Positions 2,845-37,233 of a stretch of DNA of 64,000 nt are shown here, piece by piece. Each line of letters begins with the position of its first letter. Within the stretch, counting starts at the first letter, position 1. The notes below the pieces were generated by a model. That model saw only the letters and a list, made by a program, of their open reading frames with translations. It did not search any database and was not told the origin of the DNA. Source of the DNA: Escherichia coli (GTDB taxonomy: Bacteria; Pseudomonadota; Gammaproteobacteria; Enterobacterales; Enterobacteriaceae). The stretch is from the NCBI RefSeq assembly GCF_001677475.2, contig NZ_CP015229.1. One strand, 5' to 3'. A program made the translations under genes and the position numbers.

Positions 2845-2890
2845 AAACCCATAATTACAGAAAATAATTATGGGTTTGTTATTTATTTTA
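2845..2890 (+). terminator. Intrinsic terminator downstream of entF
   Basis: Perfect 13-bp inverted repeat aaacccataatta / taattatgggttt with 7-nt loop, followed by a T-rich tract. Confidence 0.6.
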
Positions 2891-3044
2891 TTTATAAGTT
2901 TAGTGGTTATTTCTCTTAAATAGAATGAATGTTGCATTCAGTGGAAGGAATTTACAAACTTCAGCTTCGGATAATTCTCACCAACTGGTAAAGTGAGCGC
3001 CGTGGAGATTTTCCCCTATTGGACTCATTTTCAGGTTATACCCC

Positions 3045-8341: not shown

Positions 8342-8353
8342 CTAAAGGTGCAT

Positions 8354-8396
8354 TTTCCCCTCACCCTAACCCTCTCCCCAAAGGGGCGAGGGGACT
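8354..8396. repeat. GC-rich palindromic intergenic element, copy 1
   Basis: cccctcaccctaaccctctcccc aaa ggggcgaggggac; the same 23-nt core recurs at 16753-16775. Sits between convergent entS and fepB, so a likely bidirectional terminator hairpin. Confidence 0.6.
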
Positions 8397-8421
8397 GTTA
8401 GTGCTCTAATTTTATGTTTTA

Positions 8422-17060: not shown

Positions 17061-18149
17061 TCAGGCTTTAAACGATTCCACTTTTTCGAACGCTGCACGC
17101 AACGTATCTGGTGTCAGCGTGACTGGCAGGTAATGAATGGACTCCACCGGACGTAAGGTGTGGGCAATCACTTTGTCGATCTCCGCCTGATTATTGATAT
17201 CCACTTCCAGCTCCGCCAGCGTAGTCGGCAGATGAAAACGTTGATACGCCCCGGTTAATTGCGCCAGCACATCATCCTGACCCAGCAAGGCGCTTTGCAC
17301 CAGAATGCCGTAGGCGACTTTGGTGCCGTGGAGAAACTTCTCGGTTTGCGGCAAAACGGTCAGACCGTTATGCACGGCATGGGCCGCCGCCACACGCGTA
17401 AAACGATCGCCCAGACCACCGACCATCCCACCACCAGCAATAATAGCATCCACCACATCGCAAAATGATTGCGTTAACTGTTGTTTTTGCTGATCGCTCA
17501 GCGCCTGTTCGCTACTGTTTAACAAGACGTCGCGAATGGCCTGCGCATTATTGATCCCCAGACGCACGGTTAGCGGCAAGGTTTCTGGTTGCGGAGCCAG
17601 CACCACCGCTTCATACCATTTCGCCAGCGTGTCACCGATCCCCGCCAGCAGATATTCTTGCGGCGCATTGAGGATAATCTCTGGCTCCACCAGCACCATA
17701 AAATTGGCGTCGTCGAAAATCTCATAATGCAGCGCCTGTCCGGCATCGTTATACCAGACGGAGAGCGGTGTCCAGGCGGCGCAGGTGGCGGCGATCGTCG
17801 GAACGGCAACAAACGGCAGACCGAGACGGCGGGCGAGGGCTTTCGCGGTGTCGAGCAGTGCGCCGCCGCCGACGCCAATCACCACGCTGCGATCGTCACC
17901 GGACTCAGCCGCCAGGTGCTGTACATCGCTTTCGCTGCAATGACCGCGAAACAAAATATGCTTTGCACCAGGCAGTTGAAACGCTGGTGGAAGTCTGATT
18001 TGCGCCGCAGCAATGGCGCGTTCGCCGTAGATCCACACCGCGCGAGAAAGCTGTTCATCAGTGAAAAAGTCGTGCAGGTGATTGAAACTTCCTGGATGTG
18101 AAAAGTAGTTAGCCGGGCCGACGACGACGCGGATAGGATTGTGAGGCAT
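17061..18149 (-). CDS. ybdH: Iron-containing alcohol/hydroxycarboxylate dehydrogenase family protein
   Basis: 362-aa ORF with glycine-rich NAD-binding stretch GVGGGALLDTAK. Confidence 0.9.
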   Translation of the reverse strand: MPHNPIRVVVGPANYFSHPGSFNHLHDFFTDEQLSRAVWIYGERAIAAAQIRLPPAFQLPGAKHILFRGHCSESDVQHLAAESGDDRSVVIGVGGGALLDTAKALARRLGLPFVAVPTIAATCAAWTPLSVWYNDAGQALHYEIFDDANFMVLVEPEIILNAPQEYLLAGIGDTLAKWYEAVVLAPQPETLPLTVRLGINNAQAIRDVLLNSSEQALSDQQKQQLTQSFCDVVDAIIAGGGMVGGLGDRFTRVAAAHAVHNGLTVLPQTEKFLHGTKVAYGILVQSALLGQDDVLAQLTGAYQRFHLPTTLAELEVDINNQAEIDKVIAHTLRPVESIHYLPVTLTPDTLRAAFEKVESFKA

Positions 18150-18257
18150 GTTGTGTTGTCCTTATTGTTTTATTTAGACATCTAAACGTCTTGATTGCCA
18201 AATACTAGCATCGTGTTATAGTGCCTTCAACACGCAACTTCGTCAGGCACAATAAAA

Positions 18258-19418
18258 ATGACAAATAACCCTCTGATTCCACAAAGCAAACTTCCACAAC
18301 TTGGCACTACCATTTTCACCCAGATGAGCGCGCTGGCGCAGCAACACCAGGCGATTAACCTGTCGCAAGGCTTTCCTGATTTTGATGGTCCGCGCTATTT
18401 ACAGGAGCGGCTGGCGTACCACGTTGCCCAGGGGGCAAACCAATACGCGCCCATGACCGGCGTGCAGGCCTTGCGCGAGGCGATTGCTCAGAAAACGGAA
18501 CGTTTGTATGGCTATCAACCAGATGCCGATAGCGATATCACCGTAACGGCAGGGGCGACGGAAGCGTTATATGCAGCGATTACCGCATTGGTGCGCAATG
18601 GTGATGAAGTGATCTGCTTTGATCCCAGCTATGACAGTTACGCGCCCGCCATCGCGCTTTCGGGGGGAATAGTGAAACGTATTGCACTGCAACCACCGCA
18701 TTTTCGCGTGGACTGGCAGGAATTTGCCGCATTGTTAAGCGAGCGCACCCGACTGGTGATCCTCAACACCCCGCATAACCCCAGTGCAACTGTCTGGCAG
18801 CAGGCTGATTTCGCCGCTTTGTGGCAGGCAATTGCCGGGCACGAGATTTTTGTCATTAGCGATGAAGTTTACGAGCACATCAACTTTTCACAACAGGGCC
18901 ATGCCAGCGTGCTGTCGCATCCGCAGCTGCGTGAGCGGGCGGTGGCAGTTTCTTCATTTGGCAAGACTTATCATATGACCGGCTGGAAAGTGGGTTATTG
19001 CGTTGCGCCAGCGCCCATCAGTGCCGAAATTCGCAAGGTACATCAGTATCTGACCTTTTCGGTAAATACCCCGGCGCAACTGGCGCTTGCCGATATGCTA
19101 CGTGCAGAACCTGAGCATTATCTTGCGTTACCGGACTTTTATCGCCAGAAACGCGATATTCTGGTGAATGCCTTAAGTGAGAGTCGGCTGGAGATTTTAC
19201 CGTGCGAAGGTACATACTTTTTGCTGGTGGATTACAGCGCCGTGTCTACGCTGGATGACGTTGAGTTTTGCCAGTGGCTGACGCGGGAGCACGGTGTAGC
19301 GGCGATTCCGCTGTCGGTGTTTTGCGCCGATCCCTTCCCCCATAAACTGATTCGTCTCTGTTTTGCCAAGAAGGAATCGACGTTGCTGGCAGCAGCTGAA
19401 CGCCTGCGCCAGCTGTAG
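18258..19418 (+). CDS. ybdL: PLP-dependent aminotransferase (methionine aminotransferase family)
   Basis: 386 aa; PLP-lysine motif SFGKTYHMTGWKVGY. Confidence 0.9.
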   Translation: MTNNPLIPQSKLPQLGTTIFTQMSALAQQHQAINLSQGFPDFDGPRYLQERLAYHVAQGANQYAPMTGVQALREAIAQKTERLYGYQPDADSDITVTAGATEALYAAITALVRNGDEVICFDPSYDSYAPAIALSGGIVKRIALQPPHFRVDWQEFAALLSERTRLVILNTPHNPSATVWQQADFAALWQAIAGHEIFVISDEVYEHINFSQQGHASVLSHPQLRERAVAVSSFGKTYHMTGWKVGYCVAPAPISAEIRKVHQYLTFSVNTPAQLALADMLRAEPEHYLALPDFYRQKRDILVNALSESRLEILPCEGTYFLLVDYSAVSTLDDVEFCQWLTREHGVAAIPLSVFCADPFPHKLIRLCFAKKESTLLAAAERLRQL

Positions 19419-20048
19419 TTATTTAACCGTCCAGGCGCGGGAAAATTGACGGTCGGCAAACAGTTCTTGCAGGCCGTTAATTTGCTTCAGGCGCAGCACT
19501 TCGTCGCTGTCCATTCCCAGCTCTTTGCCGATTTTATGATCGTCCCATCCCAACTGGCTGAGTTCACGAACAATTTCGGACATGGCAGTGATTTGGTGGC
19601 GACCACGAGCGCGGTTATGACGAATAGTCGCGGCGATGCGTTGATTACGCGTACCTTCCAGACAGGTCACCGGCAAATAACCTTTTAAGCGTAATTTTAA
19701 CGATGATGAGCCTTTACCAATTTCATGGCGGTGAAAACCATCCACGATTTCCAGGGCATTTTTATCCGTATGCGTGACCACAATGGGTTGGGTAAAACCA
19801 TCTATTTCAATGGATTTTTTCAGCAGTTTTTTTTCGGGTGGTGCCACGTTGTTTGGGTTGTAATCATTAGGCATAAGTTGGCTGTTTTTAACCCACAGAA
19901 CGCAATCCACTGGCTCTTCTCGAAAGGGGCTAACCTGATGGATCGCCATGCGGATTTCATTAATCGCTTTGATGCGATCGTCTTCCGGCAAGCTGGCGAG
20001 AAATTGGGTTAAATCCTGCGTTAATCGTTGTTGCATAGTATCCCCCAT
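19419..20048 (-). CDS. ybdM: ParB/sulfiredoxin-like domain protein
   Basis: 209 aa; DGFHRH motif and arginine-rich RHNRARGRH; start overlaps the 3' end of ybdN by 28 nt. Confidence 0.85.
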   Translation of the reverse strand: MGDTMQQRLTQDLTQFLASLPEDDRIKAINEIRMAIHQVSPFREEPVDCVLWVKNSQLMPNDYNPNNVAPPEKKLLKKSIEIDGFTQPIVVTHTDKNALEIVDGFHRHEIGKGSSSLKLRLKGYLPVTCLEGTRNQRIAATIRHNRARGRHQITAMSEIVRELSQLGWDDHKIGKELGMDSDEVLRLKQINGLQELFADRQFSRAWTVK

Positions 20049-21241
20049 TCCTGACGTTTTCCTTTTATTCGTTCGTTATAACGCTGATAGTTCTTCGCTT
20101 TGGTCGGGCTAAATGATAATGCCCGACACCAGTAATCGTTATTGAGTAAAACTTTGCATATTCGCCGCCAGGAGGGGATATCTTTCGCGCCAATGTCCCC
20201 TTGCTGGGTTTGTGGAACCTCGATGCCTTTTTTCTGATACCAGTGCAAATAAATGGCGATTTTATTGCGATAATGCTCAGCTGTTTTCTCCGGCATGCTG
20301 TTGAGTAGCAATAATGCATACTCCTGCCAGTCTAAATGTTCGGGCTTGAGGATTTTCCGATGACCATAAAAATGGTTGTCATGTCCGGCGTAAATGCCGC
20401 CACTTTTTACCCCGCTGACTCGTGCGCACATAGCAGCCCAGCGATCCGGTTCGATAACGTGATAGAGCCATAATCCTTGCCGTTGTTCCGGACCAAAAGG
20501 TTCGCAAATTCGCATATGACGCAGAGGAACGCCTGCCTGATACATTAGGTTATACAGTGGGTTGCAGAGACTTTGATGATTTGCATACCAGGTCCAGATA
20601 TCAGCCACTTTCCAGTCGTAGATGGGGTAAATGTACCAACTATGACCGCCTGGTGCGGCAGTAGTCCAGGGCTTATCATCGGCAAAACGTTGTTTATTTA
20701 AACTGGCGATGGCGACAAAACGGTTGTAGGACTCATCCGCACGGATGCCGATCATCATCGCCGCCGGACGTTTTTGCGAAAACCATTCGGCAAACTCACG
20801 CACAAATTGTTCGAAGGTCATGCCAGGCTGGTAAAAGGAGAAAAAGTCAGGATCGGTTATCGCATCTTGCGGGGGCTGACGTACCCATTCGACATCAGGT
20901 TCCCAGCACTGCCATTCGGGTTGGTATTGTGATAGGGAATTTTGCGTTGTAAGCGGGAGCGCAACCCAGTAAAACTCTTCGATGACATCGGTGTACAACT
21001 CGCGCAGAGACTGAACATAGTTAATGGTGCAAGAGAACTGAGCTTCCCAGTCGATAAATAAAACACAAATTTTTTTGCCCATTTGTCGGGCAAGTTCGGC
21101 GGTCAGATGCAGCATTAATCCGGAATCTTTACCACCCGAAAAAGAAACGCAGACGCGGGGTAGGGTGTTAAGTGTCCAGGTAATACGTTCTTTTGCAGCT
21201 TCCAGAATATTCAGTGGAAGCGGGATTTTATAAATAGACAT
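20021..21241 (-). CDS. ybdN: PAPS-reductase-like / PP-loop ATP pyrophosphatase family protein
   Basis: 406 aa; PP-loop SFSGGKDS near the N-terminus. Confidence 0.85.
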   Translation of the reverse strand: MSIYKIPLPLNILEAAKERITWTLNTLPRVCVSFSGGKDSGLMLHLTAELARQMGKKICVLFIDWEAQFSCTINYVQSLRELYTDVIEEFYWVALPLTTQNSLSQYQPEWQCWEPDVEWVRQPPQDAITDPDFFSFYQPGMTFEQFVREFAEWFSQKRPAAMMIGIRADESYNRFVAIASLNKQRFADDKPWTTAAPGGHSWYIYPIYDWKVADIWTWYANHQSLCNPLYNLMYQAGVPLRHMRICEPFGPEQRQGLWLYHVIEPDRWAAMCARVSGVKSGGIYAGHDNHFYGHRKILKPEHLDWQEYALLLLNSMPEKTAEHYRNKIAIYLHWYQKKGIEVPQTQQGDIGAKDIPSWRRICKVLLNNDYWCRALSFSPTKAKNYQRYNERIKGKRQEWGILCNND

Positions 21242-21387
21242 CTGAAAACGCTCTCTGAACGTTACGGGGTGATCAGTGAGATAAGACTGTTAATTATAAA
21301 GTAAACACTGTAAAGCAGAGTGTTTTATTTTTCATTCGCGCCGTGAATAAATAGATGAAAGTTATAGTAGCTGTCTGAAGTTATATA

Positions 21388-22290
21388 TCAAAAACTCTCA
21401 TTTAGGCGGTCAATAAATCGGGAGAACACCAGGTTATTTAAAGAAGATTTATTATAGGAAATGTAAAGCTTTATTGAAGGTAACGGATGCTCTAGTTTTA
21501 TCTCTTTTAAATTAAGAAAGTCACGGTGGGAGTTATAAAGTTCATAGGGAACTATTCCCAGTAAATCTGTAACTGCAATGCTATTAATGATTGTCAGCAA
21601 AGAGGAACCACGAAATGAAATTTTGCGATTCATAAACTTCTCATCTATTTCCATTTGAATATCATCAACCCCTGCTGATTTGGATATTAATTGGGTGAAC
21701 TCTTCTGCCATAATTTGCTCATAAGTGCTATTGTCAGTAATTCGCGGATGCTTATTACTACAAATTAGAGTATTGCGAATTGTATGCAATGGCATGCAAA
21801 TAACGGAACGGCTGATTACTGGCATTTGGGTGATCACCAGATCGGCTTTGCGGTGAACCAACAGTTCTTCAGCATTCTCTGCTGACATGAGGATATCATG
21901 GCACTCAATCTCGACAGAGGCATCTTGTCGTAGGCAGCGGATCAGCATACTATTATTAGAGCAAGAAATGAGCTGAGGGCCGTAGATAATAAAATTTTTC
22001 TTTAGTTCGGACTTATTGACTATATTAATTGTTTGTTCAAGGTCTCTGAGATTTTTCTCAAGATGGTGATGCAGATTTAACCCTGTCGTCGTCGGCGCGA
22101 TACCTTTTCCTGAGCGAATGAATAAAGGGTCATTAAATTGCGCACGTAAGCGTTGTAACGACTGGCTCACGGCTGATGGGGTGATATATAGTGATTCAGC
22201 AGCCTTGCTAATGCTTAAATGCTGATAAATACACTCAAATATGACAAGAAGATTTAAGTCGAACTTTTTCAAGTCGTAGAGATTGGCCAT
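21388..22290 (-). CDS. ybdO: LysR-family transcriptional regulator
   Basis: 300 aa; N-terminal helix-turn-helix (ISKAAESLYITPSAVSQSLQRL); AT-rich gene. Confidence 0.85.
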   Translation of the reverse strand: MANLYDLKKFDLNLLVIFECIYQHLSISKAAESLYITPSAVSQSLQRLRAQFNDPLFIRSGKGIAPTTTGLNLHHHLEKNLRDLEQTINIVNKSELKKNFIIYGPQLISCSNNSMLIRCLRQDASVEIECHDILMSAENAEELLVHRKADLVITQMPVISRSVICMPLHTIRNTLICSNKHPRITDNSTYEQIMAEEFTQLISKSAGVDDIQMEIDEKFMNRKISFRGSSLLTIINSIAVTDLLGIVPYELYNSHRDFLNLKEIKLEHPLPSIKLYISYNKSSLNNLVFSRFIDRLNESF

Positions 22291-22499
22291 ACACTACTCC
22301 GGTTATATTTTTCTTCCATGGTATATTCACTTAATCAATGTTTTTTTGCGTATATATTTTTATTGATTATATTTTTTTGCTTAACTCAGGATTAAGTTTT
22401 TCTAAAATAGCACAGCCACTTAGGGCAGAGCGAGCAATTCATGCTTTTTTAGGATGGTTGAAAAGCAGGGATGTATTTCAACCATCCATGAATTATCTT

Positions 22500-23246
22500 T
22501 TATTTATTCCCCATAATGATATTAAGCGTTTTCTGATCGGGCAACCCCACGGCCTGTTGCAGCGTATTTTCCTTACTCATGTAATAGATAGCTGGTGTGA
22601 CATTTGCCCCCAGATCGTCCATGAGTTTTTCGTTGTCGCTTAACACTTTCATTTGCTCTGTACTTACGTTTGCAGGCACGTTTAGCTTAAGCTTGCCACC
22701 AGAGGATTCATATTCTTGCCAGGTTTTTGCGGGATCTTTGGAGGCAAGAATTGCCGCTGCTGTAGCCGGGCTTTCTGGCTTGATAACCCCAACCAACAAT
22801 GTTCTTAATTGCACTTTGCCAGAATCTACCCACGGGCGCGCCTGCTGCCAGAACTGTTTACAATATGGGCAGAACGGATCGGCGAAGACGTAGACAATGA
22901 CCGGCGCATCTTTTTTACCGTCGAGGAGCCAGTGGGATTGTTCCATCCGTTGCCACATTTCGCGTCCGGCTGGTGCGTAAATTTCTTTTTCGATAAGTGT
23001 GTTACTCAGGTTTTCACCTTTCTCGTTGTACATGTAACCGGATATGGCGTGCTTACCATCTGGAGTCAGGTAGATGGTGACGCCCATATCCTGATACTTT
23101 CCGAGATAACCTTTCATTCCTCCGGGGGCATCGAACGTTTTGATGATTGTAATGCCCTGTTTTTCAATCGCTTTTACTGGGGCAGGAAGTTCCTCTGCGA
23201 AGGCGATTGCTGGAAGCAGAGCCAGTAAAAGTATCTTTTTTAACAT
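22500..23246 (-). CDS. dsbG: Periplasmic thiol:disulfide interchange protein
   Basis: Trimmed to ATG at 23246 ([11 protein letters not shown]...); signal peptide; CPYC active site. Confidence 0.9.
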
Positions 23247-23617
23247 TAATTTGTCCTTTTCAGTCAGTGCAAAAGTCGAGTAAAAGGCATAACCTATCAC
23301 TGTCATAGGTAAGAGCTTAGATCAGGTGATTGCCCTTTGTTTATGAGGGTGTTGTAATCCATGTCGTTGTTGCATTTGTAAGGGCAACACCTCAGCCTGC
23401 AGGCAGGCGCTGAAGATACCAAAGGGTAGTTCAGATTACACGGTCACCTGGAAAGGGGGCCATTTTACTTTTTATCGCCGCTGGCGGTGCAAAGTTCACA
23501 AAGTTGTCTTACGAAGGTTGTAAGGTAAAACTTATCGATTTGATAATGGAAACGCATTAGCCGAATCGGCAAAAATTGGTTACCTTACATCTCATCGAAA
23601 ACACGGAGGAAGTATAG

Positions 23618-24181
23618 ATGTCCTTGATTAACACCAAAATTAAACCTTTTAAAAACCAGGCATTCAAAAACGGCGAATTCATCGAAATCACCGAAAAAGA
23701 TACCGAAGGCCGCTGGAGCGTCTTCTTCTTCTACCCGGCTGACTTTACTTTCGTATGCCCGACCGAACTGGGTGACGTTGCTGACCACTACGAAGAACTG
23801 CAGAAACTGGGCGTAGACGTATACGCAGTATCTACCGATACTCACTTCACCCACAAAGCATGGCACAGCAGCTCTGAAACCATCGCTAAAATCAAATATG
23901 CGATGATCGGCGACCCGACTGGCGCCCTGACCCGTAACTTCGACAACATGCGTGAAGATGAAGGTCTGGCTGACCGTGCGACCTTCGTTGTTGACCCGCA
24001 GGGTATCATCCAGGCAATCGAAGTTACCGCTGAAGGCATTGGCCGTGACGCGTCTGACCTGCTGCGTAAAATCAAAGCAGCACAGTACGTAGCTTCTCAC
24101 CCAGGTGAAGTTTGCCCGGCTAAATGGAAAGAAGGTGAAGCAACTCTGGCTCCGTCTCTGGACCTGGTTGGTAAAATCTAA
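23618..24181 (+). CDS. ahpC: Alkyl hydroperoxide reductase, peroxiredoxin subunit C
   Basis: 187 aa; peroxidatic cysteine motif FTFVCPTEL. Confidence 0.97.
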
Positions 24182-24320
24182 ATTTCCTTCGTCTTTCACG
24201 CCATAGCGGCGTTGGCGTCGCCCGCTCACCCCGGTCACTTACTTGTGTAAGCTTCCGGGGATTCACAGGCTAGCCGCCTTGCTCTGGCGTGAAATACTTC
24301 GGAAATTCACCTAATTCTTC

Positions 24321-24345
24321 GGGTGCTGCGGCACCCGATTTTCTT
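24321..24345 (+). terminator. Intrinsic terminator/attenuator between ahpC and ahpF
   Basis: gggtgc-tgcg-gcaccc hairpin followed by gattttctt. Confidence 0.55.
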
Positions 24346-24425
24346 CCCCGCATCATGATGCAAGCTGCATCCAGGTAGCCGCAGAGGCCGCTTGCATGAT
24401 GATGTTTAAAGCCCAGGAGATAAAC

Positions 24426-25991
24426 ATGCTCGACACAAATATGAAAACTCAACTCAAGGCTTACCTTGAGAAATTGACCAAGCCTGTTGAGTTAATTGCC
24501 ACGCTGGATGACAGCGCTAAATCGGCAGAAATCAAGGAACTGTTGGCTGAAATCGCAGAACTGTCAGACAAAGTCACCTTTAAAGAAGATAACAGCTTGC
24601 CGGTGCGTAAGCCGTCTTTCCTGATCACCAACCCAGGTTCCAACCAGGGGCCACGTTTTGCAGGCTCCCCGCTGGGCCACGAGTTCACCTCGCTAGTACT
24701 GGCGTTGCTGTGGACCGGTGGTCATCCGTCGAAAGAAGCGCAGTCTCTGCTGGAGCAGATTCGCCATATTGACGGTGATTTTGAATTCGAAACCTATTAC
24801 TCGCTCTCTTGCCACAACTGCCCGGACGTGGTGCAGGCGCTGAACCTGATGAGCGTACTGAACCCGCGCATCAAGCACACTGCAATTGACGGCGGCACCT
24901 TCCAGAACGAAATCACTGATCGCAACGTGATGGGCGTTCCGGCAGTGTTCGTAAACGGGAAAGAGTTTGGTCAGGGCCGCATGACGTTGACTGAAATCGT
25001 TGCCAAAATTGATACTGGCGCGGAAAAACGTGCGGCAGAAGAGCTGAACAAGCGTGATGCTTATGACGTATTAATCGTTGGTTCCGGCCCGGCGGGTGCA
25101 GCGGCAGCGATTTACTCCGCACGTAAAGGCATCCGTACCGGCCTGATGGGCGAACGTTTCGGTGGTCAGATCCTCGATACCGTTGATATCGAAAACTACA
25201 TTTCTGTACCGAAGACCGAAGGGCAGAAACTGGCAGGTGCGCTGAAAGTTCACGTTGATGAATACGACGTTGATGTGATCGACAGCCAGAGCGCCAGCAA
25301 ACTGATCCCGGCAGCGGTTGAAGGTGGTCTGCATCAGATTGAAACAGCTTCTGGCGCGGTACTGAAAGCACGCAGCATTGTCGTGGCGACCGGTGCAAAA
25401 TGGCGCAACATGAACGTTCCGGGCGAAGATCAGTATCGCACCAAAGGCGTGACCTACTGCCCGCACTGCGACGGCCCGCTGTTTAAAGGCAAACGCGTAG
25501 CGGTTATCGGCGGCGGTAACTCCGGCGTGGAAGCAGCAATCGACCTGGCGGGTATCGTTGAGCACGTAACTCTGCTGGAATTTGCGCCAGAAATGAAAGC
25601 CGACCAGGTTCTGCAGGACAAACTGCGCAGCCTGAAAAACGTCGACATTATTCTGAATGCGCAAACCACGGAAGTGAAAGGCGACGGCAGCAAAGTCGTT
25701 GGTCTGGAATATCGAGATCGTGTCAGCGGCGATATTCACAACATCGAACTGGCCGGTATTTTCGTCCAGATTGGTCTGCTGCCGAACACCAACTGGCTGG
25801 AAGGCGCAGTCGAACGTAACCGCATGGGCGAGATTATCATTGATGCGAAATGCGAAACCAACGTCAAAGGCGTGTTCGCAGCGGGTGACTGTACAACGGT
25901 TCCGTACAAGCAGATCATCATCGCCACTGGCGAAGGTGCCAAAGCCTCTCTGAGTGCTTTTGACTACCTGATTCGCACCAAAACAGCATAA
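24426..25991 (+). CDS. ahpF: Alkyl hydroperoxide reductase, flavoprotein subunit F
   Basis: Trimmed to ATG at 24426 ([10 protein letters not shown]...), which has AGGAG upstream; redox motifs CHNCPD and CPHCDG. Confidence 0.95.
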
Positions 25992-26020
25992 GAAGAAGTA
26001 AGATTCACCTGCAATTGCTT

Positions 26021-26053
26021 AGCCGCCGGGGTCAAACCTGGCGGCTTTTTTAT
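26021..26053 (+). terminator. Intrinsic terminator of ahpF
   Basis: agccgcc...ggcggc hairpin followed by a T6 run. Confidence 0.6.
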
Positions 26054-26055
26054 TG

Positions 26056-26096
26056 CAATAAAAAGCCCCGCCGGGATGGCTCCGGGCAGGGCGGGA
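26056..26096 (-). terminator. Intrinsic terminator of uspG (convergent with the ahpF terminator)
   Basis: GC-rich inverted repeat cccgcc...ggcggg followed on the minus strand by a U-run (plus-strand aataaaaag). Confidence 0.5.
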
Positions 26097-26112
26097 TAAA
26101 TACTTTTATCTA

Positions 26113-26541
26113 TTAGCGAACGACCAGCACCGGCAGATTGGCGTGGCGGATAACGCTGGAGGCGTTAGAACCTAACAGATGGGTCGAAATCGATGGGTTG
26201 CGCGAACCGATAACGACAACATCAGCCCCCAGTTCTTCTGCCAACTCATTGACTTCATCCCGCACGCTACCAAAACGGACATGTTGTTTAATGCGGGAAG
26301 GATCGATGGTGAAGTGGCTGACCATCGTTTGCAGACGTTCTTCTGCTTCATGTTGCAGATGCTCTTCAAAACGACGCACATCAGCGGCAAAACGGTGCAG
26401 GCTCAGGCTGGCTGACCCCGGTAGTACGTGAAGTAGATGAATAACTCCGTCATCCTGGGCGAGGAATTCAGCGTGGCGAACAGCTTTGTCGCTCAATTCC
26501 ATTTCGAAAACATCCACTGGCATGATGATTGTTTTGTACAT
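26113..26541 (-). CDS. uspG: Universal stress protein G
   Basis: Trimmed to ATG at 26541 ([10 protein letters not shown]...), which has AGGAGAG upstream; 142 aa UspA fold. Confidence 0.9.
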
Positions 26542-26664
26542 AAGCATTCTCTCCTTGTTTTTGCATGTATACATAACAGCACATTATTGGTTATGAATCT
26601 ATAATTTGCGAGGCTGATTTGATCTGAATTTGCTATTGAGCTGGAAAATAAATAAAACCAGGCG

Positions 26665-26754
26665 CTACCAGCGTTGTTCAAGGTATAGCACTGCAGCAAC
26701 AATAATTGCTGCTATGAATATATAAAATGCAGTGATACCGAGAGCTTCGCTCAT
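26665..26754 (-). CDS. Hypothetical 29-aa hydrophobic small protein (unverified)
   Basis: ATG-to-TAG ORF MSEALGITAFYIFIAAIIVAAVLYLEQRW, one predicted transmembrane helix; weak GGAA upstream. Could be a chance ORF. Confidence 0.15.
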   Translation of the reverse strand: MSEALGITAFYIFIAAIIVAAVLYLEQRW

Positions 26755-26896
26755 ATGAGGTTCCGCAGATGAATAACCAGTTCAGATTAGAATGCTGCGC
26801 TTAAGAGCAAAATGATAAATCTGGTTGATATTTGAGCGGAAAGAGGATGCGAGTGCATCCTCTGGGCAAAGCGAGTTATCGCTTGTGCAGATGGGA

Positions 26897-27307
26897 TTAA
26901 AGCAGGTAGTCGCCAGCAGCTTCTGGCTGGTATTCGAGTTCCAGCACTTCAAGGTGGGTTGCAACGCCGCCCGGAAGTTCCCAGTGAATGGAATCGCCAA
27001 CGCGCAGTCCCAGCAGTGCGGCACCTACCGGAGCCATAACGGAAAGCTGAGTATTGCTATCGGTCATTTTTGCCGGATACACCAGCGTGCGCACACGCAC
27101 TTCGCCATCGCTAAGATTGCGGAATTTAACCCGGCTGTTCATTGTCACCACGTCGTGTGGCATCTGTTCTGGCGAACACATTTGGGCGCGATCCAACTCT
27201 GCGTTTAACGCGTCGGCGATTGGCAAACCAGCATAGGCGGGTTGCTCCAGCAGAATATCGATGCGTTCGGCATCCAGGTCGTTAATGATGATAGTTGGTC
27301 TGGACAT
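26897..27307 (-). CDS. rnk: Regulator of nucleoside diphosphate kinase (GreA/GreB-like)
   Basis: ORF-track TTG-initiated frame trimmed to ATG at 27307 ([10 protein letters not shown]...); 136 aa. Confidence 0.9.
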
Positions 27308-27535
27308 TTTTACTCCATGTCGTCGGTACTGCGAGTGTCGCAGTAAACATACCCAAAAGAAAACCCTCACCGTCAGGCGGCGAGGGTTTAACTCACATGA
27401 TGATACTGACTGTTGCTCACTCTTTGAAGTGATTTGCGTCACATTCAGGGAATTCCTCAATGCAGCGCATTATGTATAATTCTTAATCGTCACGGTTTAT
27501 GGAAGACGAATTAGCGTGTTTTGTAAATCAGATGA

Positions 27536-28342
27536 TTAATAACCCACTTTATCAATCAGAAAGGTTTTGCCACAGTTGCCTGGGTGTGGTTGTGGCAAGA
27601 ATGAGTTTGCAGAAAGCGGAGCGTTGATGGCGTCAGCTTTGATCGAGATCTGAATTTCAGTCAAATACGCAGGGTTACCCTGGCACGTTAGCTTAACTGC
27701 TTTCACGTTCTCTTTTCCCCAGCTTTTGGCAAAGGCGGCATCAAAGTCACGGCGGCTCACTGTTTTACCGTAGTTATCCGCTAGGAATTTTCCGGCTTCG
27801 CTCTCTTTAATTTCTTGATTCAGGCGTACCATCGTGCCGAAGTATGCGTCTGGATCAAAACCAAAGCAGGCACCGTGTTTGGCATATTCGTAGCGTTCCA
27901 GGCAGGAACGTCCGCCAGCTCCTGGCATGACTTCACTTAGTTTAGCGGCCGTTTCCAGTGATAACCCGGTTTCCGGCGATGAACACATTCGGCTGGCGCG
28001 CGCTTCTGGTAGATTCGGGATTGGGCGAGTAGCGCAACCGAAGCGCATCCAGCGGCGTTCATCAACACCACGAGCAGCAACCGATTTAGGCAATCCTGGC
28101 CACAGACCATGTACGGTCAGAAAATCAGCTTTGTTGGTCGTTTCGGTTTGCAGGCGACATTCATCTCGTTCGTTACGATTTCGATCGTGTTGACTCTGGC
28201 AAAATCCGGTTTGCCAGGAGAGGGCCAGGACATAGCGATCAAAATCGCCATACTGTTTTGCCTGCAACGCCACGGCGTTGGCAGAAGAGAAGGGAAGCAG
28301 AGAAACCGCGAGCAACGCGGCGTTACGCCAGAATGCTTTCAT
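27536..28342 (-). CDS. rna: Periplasmic ribonuclease I (RNase T2 family)
   Basis: Trimmed to ATG at 28342 (MKAFWRNAAL...); signal peptide; RNase T2 active-site motifs HGLWP and KHGAC. Confidence 0.93.
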   Translation of the reverse strand: MKAFWRNAALLAVSLLPFSSANAVALQAKQYGDFDRYVLALSWQTGFCQSQHDRNRNERDECRLQTETTNKADFLTVHGLWPGLPKSVAARGVDERRWMRFGCATRPIPNLPEARASRMCSSPETGLSLETAAKLSEVMPGAGGRSCLERYEYAKHGACFGFDPDAYFGTMVRLNQEIKESEAGKFLADNYGKTVSRRDFDAAFAKSWGKENVKAVKLTCQGNPAYLTEIQISIKADAINAPLSANSFLPQPHPGNCGKTFLIDKVGY

Positions 28343-28389
28343 AATGGGTGTGGAACTCATACATACACTGAATACTATCTATTAAATCA

Positions 28390-28424
28390 TAAAAAAGCCC
28401 GCCAGGTGGGCTTACCTGGCGGGC
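28390..28424 (-). terminator. Intrinsic terminator of citT
   Basis: gcccgccagg / cctggcgggc inverted repeat, followed on the minus strand by a U6 run. Confidence 0.65.
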
Positions 28425-28455
28425 GTGATGATTTATTCAGCGTTTGGCGAACGTA

Positions 28456-29919
28456 TTAGTTCCACATGGCGAGAATCGGCCAGCCAACCAACAGCAACAT
28501 AGAGATGTAAATCACCCCGAAGATTGCGCCAAGTCGCCAGTAATCTTTTGATTTCACATAGCCACAGCCGTAAATAATCACCCCAGGACCGGTTGCATAC
28601 GGCGTCAGACAGCCCATGATACCGATAGACAGCACCAGCAGGATACACAGTTGTTCCATTGGTACGCCCGGAATACCTTTACCGACGGCCAGAATAACCG
28701 GCAGCATGGTTGCAGTGTGCGCAGACAGGCTGGCAAACAGGTAGTGTGCAAAGTAGAACACCAGAACCAGTACAATCACCGTTGCGTTTGGTGAGAATCC
28801 TTCCAGGTGCGTACTCATGGTACCGGCGAACCAGTCAATAAAACCAGAACGAGTCAGGCCGTTAGCCATCACAACCAGAGTTGCCAGGTTGACCAGCGTG
28901 TTCCATGCGCTGTTATAGCGGGTAATGTCTTTCCACGGCACAACGTGCAGGGCCAGCATTAGCGAAACTGCCAGCAGACCAACCGCAGTAGCATTAATGA
29001 CTTCACTGCCAAATACCCACAAACCTAAGCTGAGCAATACAAGGCCAATCAGCGTCCACTCTCTGCGTGTCAGCGCACCCATGGTTTTTAGTTCATCACC
29101 CGCCCAGGTTGCCACTTCTTCACTGTGTGTGATTTCCGGTTTGTACAACACGTAGGAAAGCCACGGCGCAATGATAAGCAAGATAACCCCAACCGGCAGG
29201 AAGCAGAGGAACCACTGCAACCAGCTAATCTGGATACCGGCAATTTTGCTGACGAACTCCAGACCCAGCACGTTTGGTGCCGCACCGGTGACAAACATGG
29301 ACGAACTCAGACTGGTACTAATGACCATCATCCACATCAAATAGCCGCCAATACGACGCGCGGACGGATCGTTCGGGAATGATTTAAACAACGGCGGCAG
29401 GTTTTTAATGACCGGAAAAACCGTACCCCCGGTACGCGCGGTGTTGGACGGTGTAAACGGTGCCAGCAGAATGTCGATAATGACAATCGCATAACCCAAC
29501 GTCAGCGTGCGTTTGCCCATGAATTTCACCAGGAAAAGGGCAATGCGACGACCTAACCCGGAAACTTCATACCCTAATGCAAAAATAAATGCGCCAAATA
29601 CCAGCCATACCGTGGTGCTGGAAAAACCAGCCAGACCCCATTTCAGCGCCTGTTTTTGCGCATTAAACGCTGGGTCAGCTAATTCTTTGGCATCAAAGAG
29701 CAGGTAATTACTGCCAATAACGCAAATAGTAACCGCAATAAAACTGATCGCTGTTGCCGGAATTGGCTCGAGGATCATGCCGACAATCATTGCCACAAAC
29801 ACAGCGAAGTAATGCCATGCCTGCGGCGGCATACCGTCGGGGACAGGGATAAGAAACATGACACCCATCACCACCAGTGGGGCCAATAGTTTCCATATAT
29901 TATCTTTTGCTAAAGACAT
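28456..29919 (-). CDS. citT: Citrate:succinate antiporter
   Basis: 487-aa polytopic membrane ORF at the distal end of the cit gene cluster. Confidence 0.93.
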   Translation of the reverse strand: MSLAKDNIWKLLAPLVVMGVMFLIPVPDGMPPQAWHYFAVFVAMIVGMILEPIPATAISFIAVTICVIGSNYLLFDAKELADPAFNAQKQALKWGLAGFSSTTVWLVFGAFIFALGYEVSGLGRRIALFLVKFMGKRTLTLGYAIVIIDILLAPFTPSNTARTGGTVFPVIKNLPPLFKSFPNDPSARRIGGYLMWMMVISTSLSSSMFVTGAAPNVLGLEFVSKIAGIQISWLQWFLCFLPVGVILLIIAPWLSYVLYKPEITHSEEVATWAGDELKTMGALTRREWTLIGLVLLSLGLWVFGSEVINATAVGLLAVSLMLALHVVPWKDITRYNSAWNTLVNLATLVVMANGLTRSGFIDWFAGTMSTHLEGFSPNATVIVLVLVFYFAHYLFASLSAHTATMLPVILAVGKGIPGVPMEQLCILLVLSIGIMGCLTPYATGPGVIIYGCGYVKSKDYWRLGAIFGVIYISMLLLVGWPILAMWN

Positions 29920-29969
29920 ACGAGTTCTCCGAAAATTAATATTTCCAAATTTATCAAGTGCTTAAATAA

Positions 29970-31374
<1,405 letters not shown>

Positions 31375-31377
31375 GGC

Positions 31378-32910
31378 TTATTCCTTCACCTGATGCACAA
31401 CATCGATCACCGAGCCATCGCGGTAACGCACAACGGCAACGACGCGGTCGGTGAATTCAATCGGCTGTGGTTCACCGGTCAGCAGACGCGCACGTTCGCG
31501 CAGCCACTCAATAGAAACCACTTTGATACCTGCTTCCTGCAGACGTTCTGCCAGCTCCGGACGTGCCGGGTTAACAGCGATACCGTGGTCGGTAACCAGG
31601 ATATCGACGCTGGAACCCGGGGTGATGCAGGTCAGCACGTTATCCACCAGAGTCGGAATACGACCGCGTACCAGCGGTGCGACGATGATGGAAAGGGCGG
31701 ATGCAATCGCGGTATCGCAGTGACCGCCGGAAGCGCCACGCAGTACGCCGTCAGAGCCAGTCAGCACGTTGACGTTGAACTGGGTGTCAATTTCCAGCGC
31801 GCTCAGTACCACCACGTCGAGACGATCAACCGATGCACCTTTCGAACCCCAGTTGGCGTACTGGTTGGCGCTGATTTCGATATGATTCGGGTTACGAGCC
31901 AGCGATTGCGCAGCGTGGCTGTCAAAGCTCTGCACATCCAGCAGTTTGCGGATCAGACCTTTTTCGTGCAGGTCAACCATCGTCGCGGTAATACCGCCAA
32001 GGGCGAAGTCGGCGCGAATATCGTGGCTACGCATTTTGTCTTCCAGGAAACGGGTTACCGCCAGCGATGCGCCGCCGGTGCCGGTTTGCATGGAGAAACC
32101 TTCTTTGAAGTAGCCAGAGTTGACAATCACATCCGCAGCGCTACGGGCAATAAGCAGTTCGCGCGGGTTAGTGGTCATACGGGTTGCACCAGCGCCGATT
32201 TTTGCAGCATCGCCAACGCGATCAACTTTGACGATCAGATCAACCTGATCTTGCTCAATGCTTGCCGGATTATGCGGATAAGGCAGCAGTTCTTCGGTAA
32301 GCATCACAACCTGTTTTGCGTTGTCGGCATCAACCATTGCATAGCCGAGGGAGCCGCAGCAGGCTTTACCGGTGTAGCCGTTGGCATTACCGAATTCATC
32401 ACAGGACGGGACGCCGAGGAAAGCCACGTCGATATTCAGTTCGCCGCTCTGTACCAGATGCACACGTCCGCCGTGAGAGTGGATTTGCACCGGTTCCGCC
32501 AGCAGACCACGGGAGATCTCTTCCGCCAGTGGACCGCGCAGGCCGGAGGTATAAATGCGGGTGACCACACCCTGACGAATATGTTCTACCAGCGGTGCAT
32601 GGCAGTCGCTCAAAGAGCTGGACGCCAGGGTCAGGTTTTTAAAGCCCATCTTCGCGATGACGTCCATCACCATATTGACGGTCAGGTCACCGCCACGGAA
32701 AGCGTGGTGGAAGGAGACGGTCATGCCGTCCTTTAAACCAGAACGACGAATAGCGTCTTCCAGGTTGGCGCACAGTTTGCGATCGCGCGCTTTTTCAGCC
32801 TGGTAGGTTTGCTTTGGCGAGTTCTGGAAAGCGGCAAGATCGCATTCAGCGCGACGATTCCAGGCCGCTACCCGTTCTTGTCGTTGAGATTGTTCAATTT
32901 TCTGCGTCAT
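31378..32910 (-). CDS. citF: Citrate lyase alpha subunit
   Basis: Trimmed to ATG at 32910 (MTQKIEQSQR...); 510 aa. Confidence 0.95.
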   Translation of the reverse strand: MTQKIEQSQRQERVAAWNRRAECDLAAFQNSPKQTYQAEKARDRKLCANLEDAIRRSGLKDGMTVSFHHAFRGGDLTVNMVMDVIAKMGFKNLTLASSSLSDCHAPLVEHIRQGVVTRIYTSGLRGPLAEEISRGLLAEPVQIHSHGGRVHLVQSGELNIDVAFLGVPSCDEFGNANGYTGKACCGSLGYAMVDADNAKQVVMLTEELLPYPHNPASIEQDQVDLIVKVDRVGDAAKIGAGATRMTTNPRELLIARSAADVIVNSGYFKEGFSMQTGTGGASLAVTRFLEDKMRSHDIRADFALGGITATMVDLHEKGLIRKLLDVQSFDSHAAQSLARNPNHIEISANQYANWGSKGASVDRLDVVVLSALEIDTQFNVNVLTGSDGVLRGASGGHCDTAIASALSIIVAPLVRGRIPTLVDNVLTCITPGSSVDILVTDHGIAVNPARPELAERLQEAGIKVVSIEWLRERARLLTGEPQPIEFTDRVVAVVRYRDGSVIDVVHQVKE

Positions 32911-32920
32911 TTTGATTGCC

Positions 32921-33829
32921 TTATTCTTCGCGGATGCCGGAAAGTTCTGCGCGGGAGAGCACCAGACGGGCACGATCGATAACCGGACCGTCAACCATCT
33001 TGCCGTTCAGGGAAACCACACCGAGGCCTTCGCGAGCGGCGGCTTCAGCGGCTTCTACGACGCGGCGTGCGTGATCCACTTCTTTCTGGGTTGGTGCGTA
33101 GAGGTTGTGGAGCAGATCAATCTGACGCGGGTTGATCAGCGATTTGCCGTCAAAGCCCAGCTGTTTGATGTGGGCGGCTTCTTGCAGGAATCCGGCTTCG
33201 TTGTTGGCGTCGGAATAGACGGTATCGAACGCCTGGATACCGGCAGAGCGCGCGGCTTGCAAAATGGAGCAGCGAGCGAACAGCAGTTCCGTACCTTCCG
33301 GTGAGCGTTCAGTGCGCAGGTTACGCACGTAGTCTTCCGCGCCCAGCGCGATACCGATTAAACGTTCAGATGCGTGAGCGATTTCTACCGTGCGGGTAAT
33401 ACCCAGCGGAGATTCAATCGCCGCCAGCAGGCCGGTGCTGCCGGGTTCACGACCACAGGCTTTTTCGATACGCAGGATCTCTTTTTCGATATCCAGCACA
33501 TCCTGAGCGGTATCGGTTTTCGGCAGACGCACAACGTCCGCACCACCGCGAACGACGGCTTCCAGGTCGTTAACACCCCATTCGGAATCCAGCGCGTTTA
33601 CACGCACAATGGTTTCAATATCGCGATACAGCGGATGTTGCAGCGCGTGGTAAACCATGCGGCGGGCGGTGTCTTTTTCACGCAATGCTACGGAGTCTTC
33701 GAGGTCAAACATCAGGGCATCAGCCGGGTAGATGAAGGAGTTGCTGACCATCGCGGCATTGGCACCAGGCACAAACAACATGCTGCGGCGGGTGCGAGTT
33801 TTACGTTGTTGCAGCGAAGCGGAAATCAT
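32921..33829 (-). CDS. citE: Citrate lyase beta subunit
   Basis: Trimmed to ATG at 33829 ([10 protein letters not shown]...); 302 aa; 4-nt overlap with citD. Confidence 0.95.
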
Positions 33830-34122
33830 TGGCAATCCTCCCATGGCAGAGCCGGGATACCGCTGGCGCGTGCCAGCAGGGCTTCCAGTCGTGCACGTAA
33901 AATGCAGTCCAGTGCGCCTTTGTCATCGACATTCAGCTGTACGCCGCGCACGTTGTAGCGGGCGAGAACGTCCAGAATGGTGGTGCGAATGGCATCGCCA
34001 AACTGTTTCTCAACGCTGCTGTTGATTTGCAGGTCGATATCCTGCGTATCGAGTGGGGCGATGCGTATCATCACATCCCCAGACTCAAGGGTGCCTGCAA
34101 CGGCGGGCTGGTTTATTTTCAT
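33826..34122 (-). CDS. citD: Citrate lyase acyl carrier protein (gamma subunit)
   Basis: 98 aa. Confidence 0.93.
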
Positions 34123-34136
34123 TTTTCACCTGTTTC

Positions 34137-35195
34137 TCATGCGGGGGTCTTTTGACGAGCTGCCGCGTCCTGGCGGGAGTGCTCAAGCAGGTTCTGCAAA
34201 TAATGCAGCGTGACTGCAGGGACCAGCGGCGCGATAGCCGTGAGATCGTTTTTCGCCAGCAGTTGACGTACCCGGGAAGCGGATATCGGCATCTCCTGGT
34301 AACGCAGCCGCTCAATTTCAACCAGTTCGATGGGCGGTGCGGAGATAGTCGGCGTTTCCAGCCAGTAGCGCATATCCTGGTTGTACTGGGCGGTAACGCG
34401 ACAAAAGGGTTCAGTACCGACAAAGCGGTGAGTTACACCCAGCGCGGGAGCGAGGTACTGACGGAAAATCTTCAGATCAATTTCGGTGTAACAATGGTTA
34501 ATGACGCTCTGTTCTTTAATGAAGTAGCAAGGGAACGTGGCGCGGGAGATGATGTATTCGGAGCCGCGATGCACAGTCAGGCGTGGAATATCGGCGGTGC
34601 CTTTTAACACCAGATCCAGCCGGTCTTCATAGGGGAAGCGTGAAGAATCTTCTTTGACTAAAAACAGATGCAACCAGTCGCACTGTGCTGCAGCCTGTTG
34701 AATCAGATAACGGTGACCATTCGTAAAGGGATTGGCGTTCATCACAATGCAGCCAATCTTATTCCCTGGATGACGAAATTTTTTCAGCGATTCGGCATAG
34801 CGTTTCAGTCGCGTGGCGCTGTTTTCCATCAGCACCATCACGCCGGGTACACTAGTCAGCGTGGAAAAACCGCACTGGCGGAACAGCGCCTCGTATTCGG
34901 TTTTGGTATAAATAAATAGATGCGTGCTGTGCCGCTCATAGGCGAGGTTAATTAGCTCGGTGGCTAATGTCAGCGCCAGTCCTTCACCGCGAACGGATTC
35001 ACTGATAGCAACGCATTTAATAATATTTCCGGCAATTCCACCGCACGCGATAAGCTTTTCATCGCGGGTTACGGTAATAAATACTTCGACTGTGGTGTCA
35101 ACGCTCAAATCATTTTCATGCAGGAATTGGGCGATTTCCGCCATTTTTTTATTTTCTGAACGTTTTACACGGGTGAAAATATCATTGCCGAACAT
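34137..35195 (-). CDS. citC: [Citrate (pro-3S)-lyase] ligase
   Basis: Trimmed to ATG at 35195 (MFGNDIFTRV...); 352 aa; first gene of the cit operon. Confidence 0.9.
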   Translation of the reverse strand: MFGNDIFTRVKRSENKKMAEIAQFLHENDLSVDTTVEVFITVTRDEKLIACGGIAGNIIKCVAISESVRGEGLALTLATELINLAYERHSTHLFIYTKTEYEALFRQCGFSTLTSVPGVMVLMENSATRLKRYAESLKKFRHPGNKIGCIVMNANPFTNGHRYLIQQAAAQCDWLHLFLVKEDSSRFPYEDRLDLVLKGTADIPRLTVHRGSEYIISRATFPCYFIKEQSVINHCYTEIDLKIFRQYLAPALGVTHRFVGTEPFCRVTAQYNQDMRYWLETPTISAPPIELVEIERLRYQEMPISASRVRQLLAKNDLTAIAPLVPAVTLHYLQNLLEHSRQDAAARQKTPA

Positions 35196-35574
35196 AATAA
35201 ATAGTATCCTGAAGGTGCATGTTGTTATCGATTTGCAACAAATGTTGTTCGATGTTGCAAACTGATAACCTTTTATTTTCACTTGGGAGAAAGGGGGGCG
35301 ATCGAGGTATATCTTTTTCTCCTTTCGCTATACATCCTAAGGAGTATTGCAGCGTGAAATTTTGATTTATTTCACATAGAGTTAGTGGTTTTTTATTTAT
35401 TTAATGGTTTTAAGTTTTTTAATTAATGTAATTACGAAATGACCCGCAGGTTTAAGTGATTTAATTGATTTAATGAATAAAATTTGCCACGATTATATTT
35501 AATATCTATGTATTTTGATTCAACATTTTAATTACATTCGTCAAAGAGGCTCGGGACAACCCGCAAGGAAAACA

Positions 35575-37233
35575 ATGTTGCAGCTTAACGAGAATAAACA
35601 GTTTGCATTTTTCCAAAGACTGGCATTTCCGCTGCGTATCTTTTTGCTGATTCTGGTGTTCTCAATATTTGTCATTGCAGCCCTGGCGCAATATTTTACG
35701 GCCAGTTTTGAGGACTATTTAACGCTTCATGTACGCGACATGGCAATGAATCAGGCAAAAATTATTGCTTCTAATGACAGTATCATCAGCGCAGTGAAAA
35801 CGCGTGACTACAAGAGGCTGGCGACCATCGCTGACAAATTACAAAGAGATACTGATTTCGATTATGTGGTGATTGGCGATCGGCACTCGATTCGTCTTTA
35901 CCATCCTAATCCGGAGAAAATTGGTTATCCTATGCAGTTCACCAAACCGGGCGCGCTGGAGAAAGGGGAGAGCTACTTCATCACCGGGAAAGGGTCAATT
36001 GGCATGGCAATGCGTGCCAAAACGCCAATCTTTGATGACGATGGAAAAGTCATCGGCGTGGTGTCGATTGGCTACCTGGTGAGTAAAATCGATAGCTGGC
36101 GTGCTGAGTTTTTATTACCGATGGCAGGTGTGTTTGTCGTGCTGTTAGGGATTCTGATGTTGCTATCGTGGTTCCTGGCCGCGCATATCCGTCGGCAGAT
36201 GATGGGCATGGAGCCAAAGCAAATCGCACGCGTGGTCCGTCAGCAAGAGGCGCTGTTTAGTTCGGTTTATGAAGGGCTGATTGCGGTGGATCCGCACGGT
36301 TACATTACCGCCATCAATCGTAACGCAAGAAAGATGCTGGGGCTGAGTTCCCCTGGACGACAATGGTTGGGTAAACCCATTGCTGAAGTGGTCAGGCCTG
36401 CCGATTTCTTTACCGAACAGATTGATGAAAAACGTCAGGATGTGGTGGCTAACTTTAACGGCCTGAGCGTTATTGCCAATCGGGAAGCTATTCGTTCAGG
36501 TGATGATTTGCTGGGGGCCATTATCAGCTTTCGCAGTAAAGACGAAATTTCCACCCTCAATGCGCAACTGACGCAAATTAAACAATACGTCGAGAGCCTG
36601 CGCACATTGCGACACGAGCATCTCAATTGGATGTCGACGCTCAATGGTCTGTTGCAGATGAAAGAGTATGATCGCGTGCTGGCGATGGTGCAGGGGGAGT
36701 CTCAGGCCCAGCAACAGCTTATTGACAGCCTGCGCGAGGCGTTTGCCGATCGCCAGGTGGCGGGGCTGCTTTTTGGTAAAGTGCAGCGCGCCCGCGAACT
36801 GGGGCTAAAAATGATCATCGTCCCCGGCAGCCAGCTTTCGCAACTGCCGCCAGGACTGGATAGCACCGAGTTTGCCGCCATTGTTGGCAATTTACTTGAT
36901 AACGCCTTCGAAGCCAGCCTGCGTAGCGATGAAGGAAACAAGATCGTTGAATTATTCCTCAGCGATGAAGGCGATGATGTGGTGATTGAAGTCGCCGATC
37001 AGGGCTGCGGCGTTCCAGAGTCTCTACGAGACAAAATATTTGAGCAGGGTGTCAGTACGCGTGCTGACGAGCCCGGCGAACATGGCATTGGGTTGTACTT
37101 GATTGCCAGCTACGTAACGCGCTGCGGTGGTGTTATCACTCTCGAAGATAATGATCCCTGCGGTACCTTATTTTCAATCTATATTCCGAAAGTGAAACCT
37201 AATGACAGCTCCATTAACCCTATTGATCGTTGA
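35575..37233 (+). CDS. dpiB: Sensor histidine kinase (citrate-responsive)
   Basis: Trimmed to ATG at 35575 (MLQLNENKQF...), which has AAGGA upstream; two transmembrane segments; H-box LRHEHLNW; ATPase domain. Confidence 0.9.
   Translation: MLQLNENKQFAFFQRLAFPLRIFLLILVFSIFVIAALAQYFTASFEDYLTLHVRDMAMNQAKIIASNDSIISAVKTRDYKRLATIADKLQRDTDFDYVVIGDRHSIRLYHPNPEKIGYPMQFTKPGALEKGESYFITGKGSIGMAMRAKTPIFDDDGKVIGVVSIGYLVSKIDSWRAEFLLPMAGVFVVLLGILMLLSWFLAAHIRRQMMGMEPKQIARVVRQQEALFSSVYEGLIAVDPHGYITAINRNARKMLGLSSPGRQWLGKPIAEVVRPADFFTEQIDEKRQDVVANFNGLSVIANREAIRSGDDLLGAIISFRSKDEISTLNAQLTQIKQYVESLRTLRHEHLNWMSTLNGLLQMKEYDRVLAMVQGESQAQQQLIDSLREAFADRQVAGLLFGKVQRARELGLKMIIVPGSQLSQLPPGLDSTEFAAIVGNLLDNAFEASLRSDEGNKIVELFLSDEGDDVVIEVADQGCGVPESLRDKIFEQGVSTRADEPGEHGIGLYLIASYVTRCGGVITLEDNDPCGTLFSIYIPKVKPNDSSINPIDR

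Follow-up and report, generated by a model that had tools for sequence, protein, structure and literature searches.

At the uspG–rnk locus of Escherichia coli K-12 (the b0607–b0610 region), ybdR, a plus-strand gene coding for a protein of 412 aa, lies between uspG and rnk. YbdR belongs to the Zn-dependent alcohol dehydrogenase family (PF08240 and PF00107). According to the annotation of the K-12 derivative NEB5-alpha, the interval measures 1,689 bp and is made up of 220 bp, ybdR (1,239 bp, plus strand), 3 bp, the small gene yldA (90 bp, minus strand) and a further 137 bp, ybdR and yldA being convergent. This pair has been listed as a convergent ‘excludon’ (PMC12288877). Translation of yldA was shown by chromosomal tagging for the K-12 allele (VanOrsdel et al. 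2018, PMC6001520), the only allele for which it has been demonstrated experimentally.

The corresponding locus in the 64-kb stretch of E. coli DNA analysed here (the window) shares with K-12 the flanking genes, their orientation, the hairpin of the putative rnk terminator, a 29-codon yldA and a homologous putative uspG promoter block, but it differs in the absence of ybdR. The preliminary description had noted this short spacer and had stated, correctly, that K-12 carries ybdR on the plus strand between uspG and rnk; the K-12 spacer is not about 355 bp but 1,689 bp long, an excess of about 1.33 kb over the window. We consider it likely that the short (S) form found in the window and the long (L) form of K-12 represent old, deeply diverged cassettes that are not related by a recent deletion. 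The L cassette carries the same functional parts as S in strongly diverged form, plus the 1.24-kb Zn-dependent dehydrogenase gene ybdR. Exchange between the two appears to take place by homologous recombination within conserved flanking sequences, namely the uspG coding sequence and the rnk terminator.

Layout of the uspG–rnk spacer

The spacer covers 355 bp (26542–26896), the sequence and the ORF list placing the uspG start at 26541 and the rnk stop codon from 26897. Along the window, ahpC (23618–24181) and ahpF (24396–25991) on the plus strand are followed in the ORF list by the minus-strand genes uspG (26113–26541; universal stress protein G, 142 aa, with RefSeq equivalents in WP4-S18, IAI39 and 042), rnk (26897–27307; regulator of nucleoside diphosphate kinase, 136 aa), rna and citT. 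The genes rna, rnk, yldA and uspG all have the same orientation in the short haplotype, from which ybdR is missing; along the minus strand, rnk is followed by its hairpins, by yldA and, some 40 nt further on, by the putative uspG promoter block and uspG. A tblastn search with K-12 YbdR (E ≤ 1e-3) detected ybdR nowhere in the 64-kb window, and the matches within the spacer were at chance level only. Since ybdR is missing, a ybdR–yldA excludon is impossible in the short haplotype, and strains of this type would be without the YbdR dehydrogenase and without convergent ybdR/yldA transcription.

Comparison with K-12 by blastn gave 93.9% identity over 26000–26574 and 98.3% over 26825–27400, the homology starting again at 26825 beside the rnk hairpin region. 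Between these segments lies a strandless core of 250 bp specific to the short haplotype (26575–26824), which has no BLAST-detectable match to the 1,586 bp present there in K-12. The genes on either side are close to those of K-12 at the DNA level (rnk 99.5%, ahpF 98.7% and uspG 96.3% identity). Synonymous variants tied to the short haplotype reach into the first 12 or so codons of uspG, where this haplotype has TAC AAA and K-12 and other genera have TAT AAG. A repeat search returned only short pairs, none of which marks a junction: two direct repeats, one of 18 nt (83%) and one of 11 nt (exact), and, on either side of yldA, inverted repeats that are 77–85% complementary.

According to the preliminary description, no protein-like ORF of more than 30 codons lies in the spacer. 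This is literally true but overlooks the 29-codon yldA (26665–26754, minus strand; MSEALGITAFYIFIAAIIVAAVLYLEQRW), which begins 142 bp after the rnk stop codon on the same strand and codes for a small membrane protein. RefSeq labels its equivalent ‘small membrane protein YldA’ (WP_001287361.1), and the gene is annotated in every short-form genome examined (WP4-S18, UTI89, IAI39 and 042). The window allele scores 59 bits against the NCBIfam equivalog NF041476 (‘membrane_YldA’; cut-off 45) and the K-12 allele 57.9 bits; with Pfam PF23689 (gathering score 27) the window protein stays below the threshold at 22.9 bits (E = 9e-5), and that of K-12 reaches 73.6 bits. Like other proteins of the YldA/YoaI family, it has 29 aa, a hydrophobic core and the conserved C-terminal AVLYLE motif, the match to YoaI (NF041475) being weaker, at 30 bits.

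The yldA alleles of the window and K-12 are only 58% identical in nucleotide sequence and have 15 of 29 residues in common. Within the short haplotype, by comparison, the protein is the same in the window, in strains of groups B2, D and F and in E. albertii, and the window allele departs from that of E. albertii at six nucleotides, in each case synonymously. Of 80 Enterobacteriaceae loci, about 30 have a 29-codon homologue with the C-terminal AVLYLE motif at this position just after rnk. Judged by this comparative evidence, the short-haplotype yldA is a real gene, conserved under purifying selection. The locus illustrates how a short, seemingly ‘empty’ spacer can conceal a validated 29-codon gene.

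The putative rnk terminator region (26842–26888, minus strand) consists of two hairpins, 26888–26866 and 26863–26842, followed by UUUCC. The second of these, also present in K-12, Salmonella, Citrobacter and Enterobacter, is formed by a perfect 9-bp inverted repeat (26842–26850/26855–26863). The region folds at −24.6 kcal/mol as RNA (z = −4.4); the U tract after the 9-bp stem is limited to UUUCC, and a consensus terminator scan made no call. No terminator was predicted between yldA and uspG, nor was any stable structure found there, and read-through from yldA into uspG is possible in the short haplotype.

On the uspG side, an alignment of 18 sequences over about 125 nt upstream of the gene revealed a block that is kept in genomes of all genera, with or without ybdR. 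In the window about 85 nt upstream of uspG fall within this conserved block, and the segment 26542–26625 (minus strand) comprises the uspG 5′ UTR and a probable promoter block. A candidate −10 element, AATAAT (26588–26583), is separated by 17 nt from a candidate −35 element, CTCGCA (26611–26606); at the aligned positions K-12 reads CAGACA-N18-TATAAT, compared with CTCGCA-N17-AATAAT in the window. A sigma-70 consensus scan of the spacer gave no strong promoter match. The block presumably drives uspG in short-haplotype strains and would differ there from its K-12 counterpart at most positions. K-12 is a poor reference for the uspG promoter and for the yldA allele of the extra-intestinal pathogenic lineages among them (UTI89 and ST131).

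An Rfam search found no non-coding RNA near threshold in the spacer. The sole real match was the rnk_leader (RF01771; 27352–27460, minus strand), which lies upstream of rnk, outside the spacer, and scored 124.9 bits against a gathering score of 50 with the covariance model. A 12-bp hairpin of this leader (27389–27361) was called by the terminator scan.

Short and long forms within E. coli

The short form is an ordinary, widespread and already annotated polymorphism of E. coli and is not specific to the strain studied here. Of 5,426 complete E. coli genomes, 1,816 (about a third) match a 1,221-nt query across the locus without interruption; elsewhere the match breaks at query position 737, which corresponds to 26836 in the window. 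The 250-bp core was present in 1,818 of the 5,426 genomes, at 99% identity or more in 1,567, and is 98.4–100% identical in all E. coli carriers but four. RefSeq annotates the order uspG–yldA–rnk in WP4-S18, UTI89, IAI39 and 042, and the short form also occurs in O25b:H4-ST131. The order uspG–ybdR–yldA–rnk is annotated in the K-12 derivative and in O145, and the long form is also found in O157, O121, O111 and O103. We take UTI89 and ST131 to belong to phylogroup B2, IAI39 to F, 042 to D, K-12 to A, and O157:H7 and O145 to E; the strains in which the long form was seen would thus fall into A, B1 and E. UTI89, ST131, IAI39 and 042, as well as E. albertii, agree with the window in architecture and junctions and show point differences only. 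ybdR can thus be regarded as an accessory gene of E. coli, missing from the main extra-intestinal pathogenic lineages sampled (UTI89 and ST131).

The length difference of about 1.33 kb could at first sight be taken for a recent deletion of ybdR from a K-12-like ancestor, in this strain or its immediate lineage, the more so as clean deletions of ybdR do occur in other genera, for example between the Enterobacter asburiae loci L056 and L030. We regard such an event as very improbable. There is no alignable junction, 250 bp facing 1,586 bp without BLAST similarity; the yldA alleles are far too different and no repeats mark the junctions; and E. albertii shares the structure with the 1,816 genomes mentioned above. 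The preliminary description had proposed either a deletion in this strain or an insertion in K-12. A private deletion does not stand, and neither does a simple indel, but the second alternative, an insertion in K-12, fits the data for E. coli better. That the short spacer is an artefact of assembly, a collapsed or misjoined region, is scarcely conceivable, as many independent complete genomes match the 250-bp core at 100% identity and the sequence to either side of it in the window is collinear with that of K-12 and IAI39.

The attribution of the window to a non-K-12 lineage, made in the preliminary description, was borne out: among the 5,426 complete genomes, the best identity over 18 kb (18000–36000) was 97.8–98.0%, and ybeM is intact. 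In bins of 500 bp over the same 18 kb, identity swings from 92% to 100% against K-12, WP4 and UTI89. The nearest uspG is that of strain WP4-S18-ESBL-07, with 4 differences, compared with 22 for 042, 24 for IAI39 and 30 of 429 nt for UTI89. The window comes from an under-sampled, mosaic lineage. The ybeM gene (41371–42156; deaminated glutathione amidase) aligns over 262 aa without a frameshift, its counterpart in the K-12 derivative being a pseudogene with a frameshift.

The uspG gene is itself unusually polymorphic. E. coli strains are up to 36 of 429 nt apart (K-12 versus IAI39), almost all of the differences being at 3-nt spacing, and the UTI89 allele is nearer to that of Escherichia sp. MOD1-EC7003 (23 differences) than to that of K-12 (32). 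This suggests that uspG alleles are mosaic and common to several species, irrespective of the presence of ybdR. Strong dimorphism is seen once more some 4 kb away, on the citR/dsbG side, in a block (21001–22500) that is only 78–82% identical to the window in UTI89 and 93–98% in K-12. Elsewhere in the window, a 90-bp insertion (8341–8430) that is missing in K-12 and IAI39 separates the convergent genes entS and fepB. It contains ccctcaccctaaccctctcccc-aaa-ggggcgagggg, a sequence that resembles a BoxC-type intergenic repeat.

Candidate remnants of ybdR

Another way to account for the spacer would be decay of ybdR in place, with a vestige of codons 57–63 surviving at 26583–26602 and E. coli HH97 representing an intermediate stage. 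The 20-mer matches ybdR at 17 of 20 nt, the codon position being identical in seven species, and a narrow shuffle test (5 of 200,000) made the match look convincing. It fell in the proper test: shuffling of 90 nt gave p of about 0.02 (55 of 3,000), and about 0.15 with the E. albertii sequence. The 20-mer aligns instead with the putative uspG promoter block, which is conserved in genomes with and without ybdR.

Strain HH97 (GCF_028201635.1, NZ_CP116409.1) joins codons 1–67 of ybdR to S-like sequence at the very site of the proposed vestige. Its locus (2688–3102 of the extracted region) is annotated as a ybdR pseudogene and a yldA of 46 aa. This chimera was found in only 1 of 5,426 genomes, and its changes relative to K-12 are biased towards C (13 G>C, 12 T>C, 9 A>C and six inserted C) and accompanied by many 1-nt indels. 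Given this bias and these indels, we rejected HH97 as an evolutionary intermediate; its L/S chimera is probably an artefact of assembly or consensus building at a site where S and L reads are irreconcilable. Taken as a whole, the derivation of the spacer from a decayed ybdR seems improbable. The 3′ end of ybdR was also considered as a possible survivor downstream of yldA in the short form, but comparison with the 3′ ends of nine ybdR genes gave no convincing alignment.

The two forms in other genera

The age of the two forms was examined in 80 Enterobacteriaceae loci, collected by a single Rnk scan of species-representative genomes, a set to which E. fergusonii, E. marmotae and E. ruysiae do not belong. 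All three Escherichia loci outside E. coli, those of E. albertii NBRC 107761, Escherichia sp. MOD1-EC7003 and SCPM-O-B-8794 (a separate species in the collection, titled E. coli), are of the short form, their junctions and class of yldA allele being those of the window. Spacer identity to the window is 88.9% in E. albertii (bin 26501–27000), 93.8% in MOD1-EC7003 and 94.4% in SCPM-O-B-8794, and neighbouring bins give similar values. The identity of S thus follows the distance between species, which argues for vertical inheritance and against recent introgression. YbdR protein clusters, searched with a view to the locus of E. fergusonii or E. marmotae, yielded nothing beyond variants from E. coli, Salmonella and one locus with another gene neighbourhood.

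Both forms have relatives in Citrobacter. The short form aligns end-to-end, across the rnk terminator, yldA and the uspG promoter, at 65–67%, with three Citrobacter loci lacking ybdR (L015, L016 and L021), and over most of its length, at 72%, with a fourth (L027). The long form aligns with Citrobacter sedlakii, in which ybdR is present, with Citrobacter koseri and with two further Citrobacter loci (L020 and L023). To judge from these alignments, there are two old cassette families, each of them present in both Escherichia and Citrobacter. The K-12 ybdR is 80% identical in DNA sequence to the genes of Salmonella and C. sedlakii, and the flanks are alike, at 78–86%. Since this divergence equals that of the flanks, the donor of the K-12 gene cannot be named, and L may just as well be an old allele of the Escherichia lineage. 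A recent transfer of ybdR into K-12 from Salmonella or Citrobacter was likewise rejected, the 80% identity being that of the flanks and the GC content unremarkable.

Within E. coli, we lean towards the short form being native and the long, K-12-type form secondary, because the sampled Escherichia species other than E. coli and the B2, D and F references are S, and L is found in A, B1 and E; this direction is based on a few typed reference strains and not on the phylogroups of all 5,426 genomes. S would then be native to Escherichia, and L would have replaced it on the branch leading to A, B1 and E.

The reverse polarity, with the ybdR-bearing L form ancestral in Escherichia or E. coli and S either a long-lived polymorphism or an introgression from a Citrobacter-like donor, appears unlikely, although it has several observations in its favour. 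ybdR lies at this locus in Salmonella, C. sedlakii, most Enterobacter, Leclercia and Silvania as well; the K-12 gene differs from theirs to the same extent as do the flanks, which were inherited vertically; the L-type 5′ codons of uspG and the rnk–yldA spacer resemble those of other genera; and S-family sequences also occur in Citrobacter. Against introgression of S stands the agreement between identity and species distance in the comparison of the window with E. albertii, MOD1-EC7003 and SCPM-O-B-8794. An ancestral L, for its part, would require many independent replacements or a very long-lived polymorphism, as S occupies all the sampled Escherichia loci outside E. coli as well as B2, D and F. 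The synonymous states of the 5′ uspG codons, in which K-12 matches other genera, fit an imported and an ancestral L alike.

The preferred reading, a native S replaced by L, can be extended beyond Escherichia, albeit tentatively, to an ancient two-cassette locus shared across genera, at which the presence of both families in Escherichia and in Citrobacter would imply repeated exchange through recombination in the flanks, and at which the lineage of K-12 (groups A, B1 and E) regained ybdR by way of a foreign cassette. It is conceivable to the same degree that one cassette is devoid of ybdR and the other carries it in intact members, each having its own yldA, uspG promoter and rnk–yldA spacer. 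Diverged cassettes distributed in this way across genera would provide a tidy example of replacement at the level of a locus, without introducing a new principle.

Throughout the family ybdR behaves as a dispensable gene at this position. It lies between uspG and rnk in just 24 of the 80 Enterobacteriaceae loci, those of Salmonella, C. sedlakii, most Enterobacter, Leclercia, Silvania and a few others. In the E. asburiae pair (L056 versus L030), exactly 1,262 bp are gone and the last 57 nt or so of ybdR remain, together with the stop codon; in a Lelliottia pair 1,351 bp are gone, with ends that differ from those of the E. asburiae deletion. Sequence comparison indicates that ybdR was lost independently in these two. 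As in the short form of Escherichia, no ybdR separates yldA from the uspG promoter, and both of the neighbouring genes, yldA and uspG, are retained. The Enterobacter and Lelliottia cases are, however, clean indels relative to a close ybdR-plus relative, whereas the two Escherichia forms are too diverged for deletion ends to be recognized.

A YbdR-like protein of 397 aa, about 80% identical to K-12 YbdR, occurs in Citrobacter amalonaticus, Kluyvera, Kosakonia, Yokenella and Phytobacter. It must be encoded elsewhere in the genome, since these genera are without ybdR at the uspG–rnk locus. Klebsiella also encodes a 397-aa protein of this kind. Within E. coli, at least 24 contigs (e.g. GCA_022353885.1) carry a ybdR with an in-frame deletion of 51 bp, which codes for 395 aa (5001–6188 of the extracted region in that genome), with a brief diverged segment midway along the protein; this hints at a relaxed constraint on ybdR in the species.
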